A DNA stretch of 24,000 nucleotides from Promethearchaeota archaeon (GCA_030599585.1 JAUVNS010000005.1:146941-170940); one strand, 5' to 3'; shown: positions 10,627-19,164, numbered from the stretch's first letter. Made by a program: numbers and translations. The notes: a model not told the origin generated them from the letters alone.

Positions 10627-10775
10627 TATTTTATAATTGTTATTATTTAGTTAAAATACTGATATAAGTATAAAAAAAGAATTGCTTGTAGCTTTTAATA
10701 AAATAAAGGCGTAATTGAAAAATAGAAATTATTATGATTAATTCATTGATATTGCTAGCATTTCTTTATACTCTC

Positions 10776-13055
10776 TTATTGATACAAGTTAGAATCGCCA
10801 TTTTTTACTTTTTGGTCTTGAACGAGCTGTTTTGCTAAATTTTCGTACTTAACAATAGTTTCTTTTTGTAGTGTTGAGCCAACTTTGGAAAGAGCATACT
10901 CAAAATGTTTAAATTCAACAAAATCAAAATCTTCTAGTTTTTCTCGTATTGCTTGCATACCTGCTTCTCTACACAAATTTTCTAGATCTGCTCCACTATA
11001 TTTTTCTGTCATTAATGCTATGTTTTTCAGAGAAATACCTTCTTTAAGTGGCATATTTTTCGTATGAACTTCTAAAATCTTAATTCTTCCTTCATAATCT
11101 GGAGCAACTACATATAATAGTTTATCGATTCTTCCAGGCCGTAGTAGGGCTGGGTCAACCAAATCAGGCCGATTAGTACTAGCTACAACGACGATCCCGC
11201 TATTACTCTCGATCCCATCCATTTCCGTTAATAATTGGGTTAATACATTGTCGTGAACTGCTGATCCTTTCCATCCTCCTCGATTAGCAGAAAGGGCTTC
11301 AATTTCATCAAAATAAATAATAGAAGGGGCTAATTCTCTGGCTTTTGCGAATATACTCCTGATATTTTTTTCAGATTCACCAATCCATTTTGATATTAGT
11401 TCTGGACCTTTAATTGTTATAAAATTCGACTGTGTTTCGCTCGCTACAGCTTCTGCTAAGAGCGTTTTTCCGCAACCAGGAGGGCCAAAAAGTAGAATTC
11501 CCGCAACAGGGCGAATTCCCGCTTTCTTGAACAGGTTTGGATGCATTAATGGCCATTCAATGGCTTCTTTTAACTCTTGTTTTATTTCATCCAATCCACC
11601 AACGTCATCCCATGAAATTTCGGGAATTTCTCTAAGATACTCTCTTAAAGCAGATGGTTTTATTTCTTTGGATGCTTTTAGAAAATTTTTATCTTTTACA
11701 AATAATTTCTGAATGATCTCAATTGGGATAGGTTCGTCAATATTAATTTCAGGTAACATATCTCTAATAGCATCCATAGCAGCTTCTCGAACGAAAGCCA
11801 TGATATCTGCTCCAACAAAACCGTGGGTGATCCCAGAATAGTAATCTATATCTACATCATTTGCAACTGGCATTCCTCGAGTGTGAATTTTAAAAATTTC
11901 ATTCCTTGCGCTTTTATTTGGAACTCTAAATCTTATTTCGGTATCAAATCTTCCTGGTCTTCTTAGAGCTTGATCAATAGCGTCTACTCGGTTTGTAGCT
12001 CCAATCACGATCACTCCCTCTCTTCCTTTCATTCCGTCAAGAAGTGTAAGTAATTGAGACACTACTCGTCTTTCAACTTCGCCTGTAACATCACTTCTTT
12101 TAGGGGCTATTGAGTCAAGTTCATCAATAAAAATTATTGTAGGTGCGTGCTTTTCAGCTTCGTTAAAAACATTTTTCAAATTTCTCTCGCTATCCCCATA
12201 AAATTTACTCATTATCTCAGGACCATTAATAGTAATGAAGTGAGCATTTGCTTCTTGAGAAACCGCCTTTGCCATCAATGTTTTTCCTGTACCGGGTGGT
12301 CCATAAAACAAAACTCCTGTTGGGGGTTCAATATTCAATCTTCGGAATAATTCGGGATGTCTAATGGGTAATTCAATTACCTCTCTAATCCTTTGAATTT
12401 CATCAGTTAAACCTCCAACATCATCGTATGTAATAATTTCTCCGGCAATATTTAGAAGTGCAACTTTTTTATTTATTTTTATCCTTGTTTCCCGAGTAAG
12501 TCTAACTACCTTGTCCATAGGTTTAGTGCTAAGCACTACTAATCTTAAAGGGCCTAAAGTTGCTCTCCTCTGAGTTCCCCCCATATTGAGCATTCTCATA
12601 AATCCATTCATAGGATTGTTTCCTTCATCAGATTTAATATAAGCCCCGGGAACATCTATCAAATCTCCAACCATCACGGGTTTATCAATCAGTTTTCCCT
12701 TTATGGCATCTGCTTGCTTTTTAATGTCGTAAATTCCCTTAGTCGGTGCGAGTTCAATTTCTCTCGCTGGTTCTACATTAATGTATCGAATAGTAACCAA
12801 TTCACCAATAGTAGATCCAAGATTTAATCTTTGTATTCCGTCTATTCTTATAATCTCCTTTCCTTTATCTGCAAAGCTCGCCACAACAATACCCGCAGTT
12901 TTCTTCCTCCCAACGATTTCTATAATATCACCAGTAGACAATCTTAATCTTTCCATAATTGATTGATCTACATAGCATAAACTTCTCCCGCTACGGCTTG
13001 ACTCTAACCTTTCAATTCTCAGTTTTGCTGATTTAGGCATTCCTTCGTTATTCAT
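10776..13055 (-). CDS. cdc48: CDC48/VCP(p97)-type AAA+ ATPase
   Basis: 759 aa with an N-domain and two AAA cassettes. Walker A motifs are GPPGTGKT and GPPGCGKT, Walker B motifs are IIFIDELD and IIYFDEIE, and RPGRFD/RPGRID are second-region-of-homology motifs. Confidence 0.95.
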
Positions 13056-16535: not shown

Positions 16536-16889
16536 ATGTCGCTGTCTTTAAAGAGGAATAAATTTCTCCAATTATTTCATAAAATCAGCAATAGTAAGAT
16601 TAGACATAGAGGACCTTTAATTTTAAGATTGTACGGTCTGTTAAATGAGGTAGACTTCGAGAACGAAAATCGATTCATCCTTTGTAATTTTATTGACCAA
16701 AATAGTGAGCTTTTCAGCCTAAGTAGAGATATTTACGAGATTAACAATGATGTGACCTTAAACCAATTGTTTCTATTCGCTTATAGCAAAGCTAGGATCA
16801 ACAATCTTATCCCAAACCTTTATTCTGAATACATTAATTCCATAAACGCCATATCTCAAAAAATTGATACTCAATCAAATCTGCCTTAA
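16536..16889 (+). CDS. Hypothetical protein (117 aa), no recognisable motif
   Basis: ORF with an ATG start. It occupies an otherwise empty gap on the same strand, 126 nt upstream of a small GTPase gene. Coding status is not independently supported. Confidence 0.4.
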   Translation: MSLSLKRNKFLQLFHKISNSKIRHRGPLILRLYGLLNEVDFENENRFILCNFIDQNSELFSLSRDIYEINNDVTLNQLFLFAYSKARINNLIPNLYSEYINSINAISQKIDTQSNLP

Positions 16890-17540: not shown

Positions 17541-17722
17541 TATAAGCCTTTTAGCTTACCTATCTATAAATTTCGTCACTATTTTTCATAAAAAATGGTT
17601 AATTACTATAGTCACTTATAAATGCCTTTATAAATAAAAAATCATTTATAAAGAAATACCCTTTTTAAAAGAATTTAATTTTCTTAATTAGTTAAAATCA
17701 TATTTATTAACTTTGATATAAG

Positions 17723-18394
17723 ATGGCAAAGAAAGAGGAAAAAGTTAAGGAAGAAGTCGAGGAAGAAAAAGACGTAGACGAAGCAAGCGAAGCCGATAAA
17801 GAAGCAGGTTTAGATTATAAAATTGAGAACGTAGTAGCAACTGTCGTTGTTGAAATCACAGAAAAGATCGATTTAAATATAATTGCTCGCAAACACGCAG
17901 ATGTTGAATATAACCCCGAAAGATTTCCTGGCTTAGTTATGAGAATTCTAAAACCGAAAGCTACAATCTTAATTTTTTCGACTGGTAAAATGGTGGTTAC
18001 GGGTTTAAGAAAAGCGAATGAAGCCGGACAAGTAGTAGAGAAAGTGTTAAAAAATATAAGAAAAGCAGGGATAAAAGTATCCAATCCCGAAATCACGATT
18101 CAAAATATTGTGGCAAGTGGAGATTTACACACGAATATCGATTTAAATATGGCAGCAATCATTATGGAGTATGCTATGTATGAACCTGAAGTATTTCCCG
18201 GTTTGATCTACAGAATGCAAGAGCCTAAAACGGTTTTTTTAATTTTCAGCACTGGTAGGATTGTTTGTACCGGAGCAAAGAATAAAGAAATAGTTAGAGA
18301 AGCAGTGAAGAAATTAAATAAGGAAGTACGCAAGTTAGGTGTCGCGAAAAAGGACTTAGGAAATCCCGACTATCAAGATATTACTTTTGTTTAA
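17723..18394 (+). CDS. tbp: TATA-box binding protein, paralogue 1, with a 29-aa K/E/D-rich N-terminal extension
   Basis: Two TBP repeats: IENVVATV...YNPERFPGLVMRI..PKATILIFSTGKMVVTG and IQNIVASG...YEPEVFPGLIYRM..PKTVFLIFSTGRIVCTG. Confidence 0.95.
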   Translation: MAKKEEKVKEEVEEEKDVDEASEADKEAGLDYKIENVVATVVVEITEKIDLNIIARKHADVEYNPERFPGLVMRILKPKATILIFSTGKMVVTGLRKANEAGQVVEKVLKNIRKAGIKVSNPEITIQNIVASGDLHTNIDLNMAAIIMEYAMYEPEVFPGLIYRMQEPKTVFLIFSTGRIVCTGAKNKEIVREAVKKLNKEVRKLGVAKKDLGNPDYQDITFV

Positions 18395-18477
18395 TTACAT
18401 CTATAAAAAAATACCATTTTTAAAAGAAATTAATTCTCTTAATTAGTTAAAACAATATTTATAACGTTTGATGTAGG

Positions 18478-19164
18478 ATGACAGAAAAAAAGGAAAAAAT
18501 AGTCGAAAAAGAAGAAGAAATCAAGGATAAGGAAAAAGAAATCAAAGACGAGGAAGACGAAATCGAAGACAGAAACGATTTAGATTATAAAATTGAGAAT
18601 GTAGTTGCGACTGTTGTTGTCGAAATCACCGAAAAAATCGATTTAAATATAATTGCTCGCAAACACGCTGATGTTGAATATAATCCCGAAAGATTTCCTG
18701 GTTTAGTTATGAGAATTCTAAAACCGAAAGCTACGATCTTAATTTTTTCGACTGGAAAGATGGTAGTTACAGGGATGCGCAAAGCTTCAGAAGCTGATAG
18801 GGTTGTGGAGAAAGTGTTAAAGAATATAAGAAAGGCAGGCATAAAAGTATCCAATCCCGAAATTACGATTCAGAATATTGTAGCAAGCGGAGATTTACAC
18901 ACGAATATAGATTTAAATATGGCAGCTATCGTTATGGAATACGCTATGTACGAACCTGAAGTATTTCCCGGTTTGATCTACAGAATGCAAGAGCCTAAAA
19001 CGGTTTTTTTAATTTTCAGCACTGGTAGGATTGTTTGTACGGGAGCTAAGAAGAAAGAAATCGTTAGAGAAGCAGTGAAGAAATTAAATAAGGAAGTACG
19101 CAAGTTAGGTGTAGCGAAAAAGGACTTAGGAAATCCCGACTATCAAGATATTACTTTTATTTAA
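18478..19164 (+). CDS. tbp: TATA-box binding protein, paralogue 2, with a 34-aa K/E/D-rich N-terminal extension
   Basis: Same two TBP repeats as paralogue 1. There are 7 amino-acid differences in the 194-aa core, and the N-terminal low-complexity extension is unrelated in sequence. Confidence 0.95.
   Translation: MTEKKEKIVEKEEEIKDKEKEIKDEEDEIEDRNDLDYKIENVVATVVVEITEKIDLNIIARKHADVEYNPERFPGLVMRILKPKATILIFSTGKMVVTGMRKASEADRVVEKVLKNIRKAGIKVSNPEITIQNIVASGDLHTNIDLNMAAIVMEYAMYEPEVFPGLIYRMQEPKTVFLIFSTGRIVCTGAKKKEIVREAVKKLNKEVRKLGVAKKDLGNPDYQDITFI

Follow-up and report, generated by a model that had tools for sequence, protein, structure and literature searches.

Several archaea possess more than one TATA-binding protein (TBP), examples being Halobacterium, with TbpA-F, and Methanosarcina, with TBP1-3. 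According to a review, many archaea combine several TBPs and TFBs for promoter specificity (PMC7289017). Here we describe a tandem pair of TBP genes, termed c1 and c2, in a 24,000-nucleotide (nt) stretch of DNA (hereafter the window) from a Promethearchaeota archaeon (GCA_030599585.1 JAUVNS010000005.1:146941-170940). The source is a metagenome-assembled genome (MAG) of a Loki-type archaeon (G000; 4.85 Mb), in which the window, with a GC content of 32%, lies on contig 9. Like the multi-TBP archaea, this genome has more than one intact TBP (three in all) along with an expanded set of TFBs (ten). In contrast to them, the members of the pair lie side by side, have 96% identity in the core and evolve in concert, and their DNA- and TFB-binding surfaces are identical, which makes combinatorial TBP-TFB specificity between them unlikely.

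A second set of parallels is offered by prokaryotic paralogues known to evolve in concert, such as tuf, mtrA, the methylamine methyltransferases, the archaeal histones and the euryarchaeal chaperonins. Seven archaeal cases, every one of them from a methanogen, are listed in a survey of concerted evolution across prokaryotes, and TBP is not among them (PMC6053082); for chaperonins this survey cites Archibald & Roger 2002. As in these systems, the copies within a genome are closer to each other than to their orthologues and display mosaic tracts; unlike in them, one short internal block escapes homogenization and also passes between species. We consider it quite likely that the locus represents a tandem pair of functional TBP genes with their own conserved promoters, which evolve in concert save for a copy-specific patch, one form of which (the M form, see below) has been exchanged between lineages. 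It constitutes a well-documented new instance of known processes, namely paralogy, gene conversion and inter-species homologous recombination, in an Asgard core transcription factor, and does not overturn current views. In the limited literature that we searched, no description was found of paralogous TBPs in Asgard archaea, of tandem TBPs or of acidic tails at the N terminus.

Uneven divergence and concerted evolution of the two TBP genes

The two genes are adjacent on one strand (the + strand, as are all features of the pair given below), with the open reading frame (ORF) of c1 at 17723-18394 (223 amino acids [aa]) and that of c2 at 18478-19164 (228 aa). Each protein contains two stretches of the Pfam TBP family PF00352 (E=2.4e-57 for c1 and E=9.5e-58 for c2), and the solved TBPs of S. 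acidocaldarius (1MP9, E=5e-49), M. jannaschii (2Z8U, 2e-45) and P. woesei (1PCZ/1AIS, 1e-42) are also matched. All four positions of the DNA-inserting phenylalanines are kept in both copies, which are likewise identical in PERFPGL and ILIFSTG (repeat 1) and in PEVFPGL and FLIFSTG (repeat 2); the roles of the Phe pairs and of the stirrup motif (xPExFPG) are those that we presume from established TBP structures. By virtue of these repeats, structural matches and Phe/stirrup motifs, c1 and c2 belong to the archaeal TBP family.

The core of c1 (17810-18394), which comprises two TBP repeats of 194 aa in all plus the stop codon, can be aligned without gaps to that of c2 (18580-19164, stop codon included) over 585 nt, with 51 differing sites and 7 of the 194 residues replaced. 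These differences are concentrated toward the 5' end, with 44 falling in 17810-18180 and 7 in 18181-18394, where there is an identical run of 89 nt (18182-18270). As many as 18 of them are packed into 18001-18040, together with four of the seven amino acid replacements (LRKANEAGQ in c1 versus MRKASEADR in c2). All of these counts, first given in a preliminary description made from the sequence alone, were reproduced exactly, and the unevenness that it reported persists after proper alignment, both as a 5' versus 3' contrast (Fisher p=2e-4; p=0.015 at third codon positions) and in the longest identical run (p ~0.01 by site or codon shuffling). The breakpoints for these tests were picked after viewing the data, and it is the comparative tests below that carry the weight. 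By the Nei-Gojobori method, the proportion of synonymous differences (pS) between c1 and c2 amounts to 0.28 in the 5' part, 0.43 in the middle, 0.09 in the 3' third and 0.99 in a 55-nt patch, with the corresponding nonsynonymous proportion (pN) being 0.18 in the patch and at most 0.012 in the other segments. The most homogenized tract of c1 is the 3' third at 18181-18394, which covers most of repeat 2 and the C terminus and differs from c2 at 7 of 214 nt.

For comparison, we used a genus sample of 42 species-representative genomes, with an rpoB tree as the species frame (3.4 kb only, since rpoA1 is not adjacent to rpoB). This tree resolves a clade A of the form (G056,(G052,((G002,G048),(G000,G004)))), with an internal rpoB divergence of 4-7.5%, a clade B of G042, G016, G008, G005 and G020, and a clade C of the form G011,(G024,(G013,G014)), the three being mutually 16-18% apart in rpoB. 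The Ras and V4R genes flanking the pair were also considered as a species proxy and set aside in favor of rpoB, as they gave conflicting affinities for G042 (78% versus 97%), indicative of a mosaic locus. Only 3 of the 42 genomes, G000, G004 (SOKP01 E44_bin85) and G002 (ABR04), carry the TBP pair, in each case with the same junction and the same gene order, and an exact-pattern scan for the junction recovered four further Joint Genome Institute (JGI) metagenome contigs, all with distinct sequences. An assembly artefact had been raised as a concern in the preliminary description, and it could take the form of an expanded repeat or of two co-occurring strains joined in tandem; the G000 MAG does have an estimated contamination of 8.9%, and short-read MAGs often mishandle repeats. 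Against this, the unique junction and the order of an L-type copy followed by an M-type copy (see below) are seen repeatedly, in three MAGs that come from different studies as well as in the four distinct JGI contigs. The odds of an artefact are hence negligible; it is excluded, and the tandem pair is real.

In the quartet of G000_c1, G000_c2, G002_c1 and G002_c2, informative sites were counted per core segment according to whether they group the sequences by copy or by genome. The ratio of by-copy to by-genome sites is 14:0 in the patch (core nt 177-231), and the 5' part, middle and 3' third give 3:3, 1:4 and 0:11, respectively (Fisher p=2e-7 for the contrast between segments), and the equivalent quartet of G004 and G002 yields 13:0 in the patch versus 0:19 elsewhere (p=3e-9). 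In the 3' third, the two G002 copies are 1.9% apart, each is 5.2% from the sister species G048, and they are 8.5-8.8% from the G000 and G004 copies; indeed, the tree of this segment follows the species tree and groups G002_c1 with G002_c2 at 94% support. The patch and the N-terminal extensions, on the other hand, show that the duplication is shared among the pair-bearing genomes, so that the 3' third is closer within a genome than between genomes even though the duplication predates speciation. Mosaic tracts with breakpoints are seen not only in this segment contrast but also in individual pair-bearing sequences, with two metagenome haplotypes catching conversion under way. Thus, the cores of L156 and L157 are nearly identical (2 and 0 differences), yet L156 c1 bears a swapped, c2-type extension (84 of 102 nt identical to L156 c2), and L154 c2 has a breakpoint within a chimeric patch, whose 5' end is M-type and whose 3' half has been overwritten with L-type sequence.

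Gene conversion between c1 and c2 is strongly supported as the likely source of these patterns. We propose that repeated within-genome conversion would overwrite the 3' third together with most of the 5' and middle parts, and on occasion the N-terminal extension as well, with the 55-nt patch staying copy-specific in all seven pair-bearing sequences save for the 3' half of L154 c2. The earlier suggestion of a conversion of the 3' half is borne out as to homogenization, given the by-genome sites and the tree support in the 3' third, but not as to its being confined there, the 3' part being only where it is most complete. One could instead attribute the low 3' divergence to stronger constraint, synonymous sites included, considering that repeat 2 contacts TFB and is highly conserved in protein sequence. 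Constraint cannot, however, explain the 3' similarity because the 3' third is the most divergent part between clades (22-24% between clades A and B, versus 11-14% in the 5' part), and the eleven genome-specific sites common to both copies of that genome also speak against it; we regard this explanation as extremely improbable.

Two forms of a short copy-specific patch

The patch that resists homogenization covers 17986-18040 in c1 (the L-type form; core nt 177-231) and corresponds to the last part of strand S5 and the opening turns of helix H2 (KMVVTG-LRKANEAGQ-VVE). Its M-type counterpart in c2 (18756-18810; MRKASEADR) differs at 21 of the 55 nt, i.e., it is 38% diverged. The c1 patch resembles the other L-type patches of the genus; this type is common to G004 c1, G002 c1 and the single-copy genes of G048 and G056, the latter two having been recovered in a DNA search of the 42 genus genomes. 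The c2 patch is 2-9% from those of G004 c2, G002 c2, G052, G042, clade B and G013/G014, and 18-21% from those of G024 and G011, the closest relatives of G013/G014. The M-type patches form a group with 98% bootstrap support. Since the c2 patch is only 2-9% from those of clades that are 16-18% away in rpoB, the M segment would have moved between lineages.

The preliminary description had explained the patch by diversification of one surface helix, alongside homogenization of the 3' half. Spelled out, this would be a young in-place duplication in which the H2 helix diversified fast under positive selection as the 3' half was homogenized. In its favor, four of the seven replacements cluster in this helix, which also varies more among orthologues than any other part of the protein. 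Yet, the patch has a pS of ~0.99 and a pN/pS well below 1, and neither form is new, the L form being present in G048/G056 and the M form in clade B, G013/G014, G042 and G052 with the bootstrap support given above. Because the synonymous sites of the patch are saturated, recent adaptive diversification appears to be ruled out, and we consider helix diversification after duplication very unlikely. Instead, the patch probably represents two alternative segments, old or of foreign origin, that have escaped erasure by conversion. In the search for a donor of the c1 patch, neither the third TBP of G000, on contig 24 (GLRRADQASAG), nor the c1 gene's own repeat 2 showed any resemblance to it. Co-inheritance of the extension type with the patch type was likewise rejected, as M-type patches occur with extensions beginning with MV..., MA... 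and MT....

Another account, which we hold to be possible rather than probable, is a duplication from two sources, with c2 being a diverged sister-lineage allele (G052- or clade-B-like) taken up and fixed beside the resident gene via unequal recombination, after which conversion homogenized everything but the patch. It accords with G052, a single-copy member of clade A that combines a c2-type extension and an M patch with clade-B-like 5' and middle parts (6-9% divergence between clade B and G052, versus 23.6% in the 3' third), with the B-like sites that G002 c2 retains in its 5' part and with the inter-clade crossover seen inside the TBP gene of G042. It is countered by the c2 promoter, which is of the clade-A type (CTTAATTAGTTAAAA) and not of the clade-B type, by the ambiguous polarity of the common sites (only 17 are common to clade B and G052 but not to the c1 lineage, with mixed outgroup polarity) and by the fact that G052 is equally explained as a pair that lost c1. 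The clade-A type of the c2 promoter favors a duplication in place followed by import of the M segment. Under this scenario, L would be the clade's resident form, and M would have become common with two other clades via inter-species homologous recombination of short TBP segments.

The distribution of single-copy genes bears on the age of the pair. G056 and G048 have a single TBP gene with a c1-type extension and patch, whereas the single gene of G052 has a c2-type extension (MTEEKE...), proximal promoter and patch. This is most simply read as a single early duplication in clade A, with later losses via unequal recombination. The pair would thus have arisen before the split of G000, G004 and G002, within a clade that is young by its rpoB divergence, and would have since been gained and lost by unequal recombination, with G048 keeping only the c1 type and G052 only the c2 type.

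Several points weigh against a concertedly evolving pair with an exchanged patch. The segments compared are short (55-214 nt), which weakens both the trees built from them and the polarity of transfer, and the polarity count for exchange between clades A and B is mixed. All of the genomes are MAGs or metagenome contigs, and chimeric contigs could mimic some inter-clade recombination, notably in the case of G042 (Loki_b31). Further, the persistence of the patch in ~7 related and non-independent lineages is no proof of selection; this persistence may be due either to selection for two H2 surfaces or to heteroduplex rejection across the 38%-diverged block. If our reading holds, the gene of a core transcription factor can act as a hot spot of both within-genome conversion and inter-species recombination, which matters for the use of TBP as a phylogenetic marker.

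The locus of G042 (L042, NJBI01000016) is itself a mosaic in a genome that belongs to clade B by rpoB. Its Ras gene and promoter, together with the extension and the 5' part of TBP, are of clade-B type, and the 3' part of TBP, downstream spacer and V4R gene are of clade-A type, with identities to G000 of 78% for Ras and 97% for V4R. This could be a chimeric contig or a real inter-clade recombination whose crossover fell within TBP, the evidence coming from a single MAG contig.

The duplicated unit and its putative promoters

Upstream of the two genes, 17640-17722 and 18395-18477 are identical at 68 of 83 positions (z=12 against shuffles). The duplication of upstream DNA noted in the preliminary description is indeed present; its length is ~80 nt rather than the 69 nt given there. 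As this is essentially the whole 83-nt intergenic spacer, the repeat unit comprises promoter plus coding sequence and measures ~755-770 nt. Its start, the putative promoter and leader of c1 at 17643-17722, contains two candidate TATA-like boxes, TTTATAAA at 17645-17652 and CTTTTTAAAAG at 17661-17671, and a conserved TTGATRTAAG directly before the ATG; a promoter function for this stretch is inferred from the archaeal consensus for the TFB-recognition element and TATA box (BRE/TATA). The spacer at 18395-18477 would serve as the duplicated promoter and leader of c2, with the corresponding elements TCTATAAAAA at 18400-18409 and ATTTTTAAAAG at 18416-18426, and the duplication junction lies at about 18395-18400 (TAATTA|CAT), just past the stop codon of c1.

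The upstream block is conserved before the TBP orthologues in clades A, B and C of the genus. Across the clade A-C genomes listed, the TBP promoter region takes the strongly conserved form ATCATTTATAAAGAAATACCCTTTTTAAAAGAATTTAATTTT...TTGATGTAAG-ATG, with two TATA-like boxes lying ~16 nt from each other and a conserved motif right next to the start codon. This conservation could reflect autoregulation or a ribosome-binding element.

Acidic N-terminal extensions

Acidic tails in archaeal TBPs have been observed at the C terminus, e.g., in the Pyrococcus woesei TBP (1PCZ/1AIS) and in Promethearchaeum-family orthologues. As in those proteins, the TBPs of the pair carry a short, disordered acidic appendage on a canonical core; in this genus, however, the acidic segment (21-55 aa, net charge -2 to -25) is N-terminal. 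The extension of c1 (17723-17809) is 29 aa long, K/E/D-rich and predicted to be disordered, with a net charge of ~-7, and that of c2 (18478-18579) is 34 aa long and more acidic (~-8 to -10), in agreement with the lengths and composition first reported. For each, a single start codon is possible, since a stop lies two codons upstream and ATG, GTG and TTG are all lacking internally. Because there is no alternative in-frame start codon in either gene, the extensions should of necessity be translated, and the concern raised at the outset that they might lie upstream of the true starts is dispelled. Moreover, in the clade A-C orthologues listed, the ATG comes straight after the conserved TTGATGTA-type motif and the extension of 21-55 codons is in frame; acidic extensions in this range of lengths are present in 36 of 37 genus copies examined. 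G013 is an exception to the in-frame arrangement, with a frameshift in the extension.

The DNA of the c1 and c2 extensions is identical in 66 of 103 aligned columns (z=5.2). The two are thus homologous to each other, contrary to the initial view of them as unrelated, and the c2-type extension on L156 c1 likewise contradicts that view. The extensions are low-complexity K/E/D sequence, and the Pfam search recovered no match outside TBP. The C termini in the genus are nearly neutral (-1 to -3), consistent with the absence of an acidic C-terminal tail already remarked upon, whereas the sister-family orthologues, including those from complete genomes, have short or basic N termini and, at the C terminus, a tail that is acidic (...FEDEEEMTFL, net -7). 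In the solved archaeal TBPs, the first repeat begins at residue 8-14. The extensions are hence best described as a version of the acidic archaeal tail that appears to have been relocated to the N terminus, a real if uncommon arrangement.

Like the N-terminal domain of eukaryotic TBPs, they are variable, disordered extensions preceding a conserved core, and on this ground they had been termed eukaryote-style. The extension is real, but kinship with eukaryotes is contradicted by a composition that matches the relocated archaeal tail. There is no sequence homology with the eukaryotic domain, and neither the Pfam search nor the composition indicated such homology or a demonstrated regulatory role; the parallel is an analogy and not a homology.

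Two loci in the genus show defects. In G013 (L020), the frameshifted acidic extension reads as an R/K-rich stretch, and in G023 (L028), an inserted stretch in the TBP core contains an in-frame TAA. Both could stem from MAG errors in low-complexity sequence, or else be real lesions.

Predicted structure and possible functional differences

An AlphaFold2 (AF2) model derived from a 25-sequence alignment (predicted local distance difference test [pLDDT] score of 77.8) displays the TBP fold, with the unit S1-H1-S2-S5-H2 present twice and core pLDDT values of 74-94; residues 1-23 are predicted to be disordered (pLDDT <50). The model has a strand at residues 89-95 and helix H2 at 98-114, and the patch aligns to H2 of the solved archaeal TBPs. 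It is accordingly modeled as the S5/H2 junction of the N-terminal lobe. Judging from established TBP structures, we take this junction to be on the convex side, clear of the DNA and of the C-terminal stirrup to which TFB binds.

In c1 and c2, the stirrups and the four Phe positions are the same, as is almost the whole of repeat 2, and dN/dS against orthologues is 0.08 for c1 and 0.02 for c2, suggesting that both copies are under strong purifying selection. Since neither the saddle that binds DNA nor the C-terminal stirrup that binds TFB differs between them, both proteins should recognize the same promoters and recruit TFB alike, and differential TFB pairing appears unlikely, even with ten TFB genes in the genome. 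Any functional difference would then lie in the four H2 surface residues, in the charge or length of the tail, or in gene dosage.

In eukaryotes, the convex surface of TBP's N-terminal lobe is used by TFIIA, Mot1, NC2, TAF1 and Brf1. To our knowledge, no Asgard partner has been described. A basic cluster on the eukaryotic N-lobe H2 binds acidic-aromatic disordered peptides of TFIIA, Mot1, Brf1/2 and TAF1 (PMC7221094), and the patch lies at the start of the same helix. Comparable acidic-aromatic motifs (EEEFDYESD, DDDEFDDEAD) occur in the tails of many genus orthologues; in contrast, those of G000 c1 and c2 are without aromatic residues. In this genus the acidic tail precedes, in the sequence, the very helix that forms a regulatory surface in eukaryotes. 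We treat the parallel with the eukaryotic H2 surface as a possible lead only, and the binding of the tail back onto its own core as pure hypothesis.

A bolder reading would have the patch be a selectable, exchangeable specificity cassette on the convex N-lobe surface and the movable tail act like a TAF N-terminal domain (TAND), binding the protein's own basic surface or DNA saddle, with the two isoforms, unlike in H2 surface and tail charge, kept in tandem for differential regulation and the M cassette having spread among Lokiarchaeial species because it is advantageous. We find this doubtful; if true, eukaryotic TBP regulation would have a forerunner in Asgard archaea. In any case, the near-identical isoform pair and the natural chimeras provide material for probing the tail and the H2 surface.

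Other transcription factor genes and the genomic neighborhood

Lokiarchaeial TBP repertoires are variable. In G000, the third TBP, encoded on contig 24, is a 206-aa protein of ~73% identity with a short N terminus. The ten TFB/TFIIB-like genes are distributed over contigs 3, 4, 8, 11, 15, 20, 34 (two) and 40 (two), with 20 cyclin-repeat matches in open frames of 293-329 aa, a general transcription factor expansion comparable to that of haloarchaea. The genomes of other Lokiarchaeial families (G025-G040) contain 4-5 TBP-like genes each, with 30-75% identity to the query, and two complete single-contig genomes among them have four TBP-like loci each. One of these families furnishes another tandem TBP-like pair, on contig 65 of G040 (10721-11260 and 11449-12060).

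Relatives also encode proteins with a single TBP repeat (PF00352, E ~6e-19). One of these (L153:1108-2391, on contig 11 of G017; 427 aa) combines an N-terminal region resembling Lrp on visual inspection (without a Pfam match), a half TBP, and an Lrp/AsnC helix-turn-helix with a ligand-binding domain; another (L152:760-1719, on contig 38 of G002; 319 aa) has an N-terminal region of no known kind followed by a half TBP. At least 10 genomes of the genus, G000 not among them, contain similar open frames of 320-435 aa. The fusion of a half TBP to an Lrp-type regulator seems unusual.

The TBP pair is embedded in a gene order that is syntenic in relatives, namely a conserved 117-aa orphan, a Ras-family GTPase, the two TBPs, a V4R protein, a thioredoxin and a second Ras GTPase. 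The 117-aa ORF (16536-16889 of the window), which precedes the first Ras GTPase, is without a Pfam match. It is kept in position and sequence in relatives (L037:1578-1931, L038:1535-1888 and L020:25-273), which argues that it is a real gene, though no function is assigned to it.

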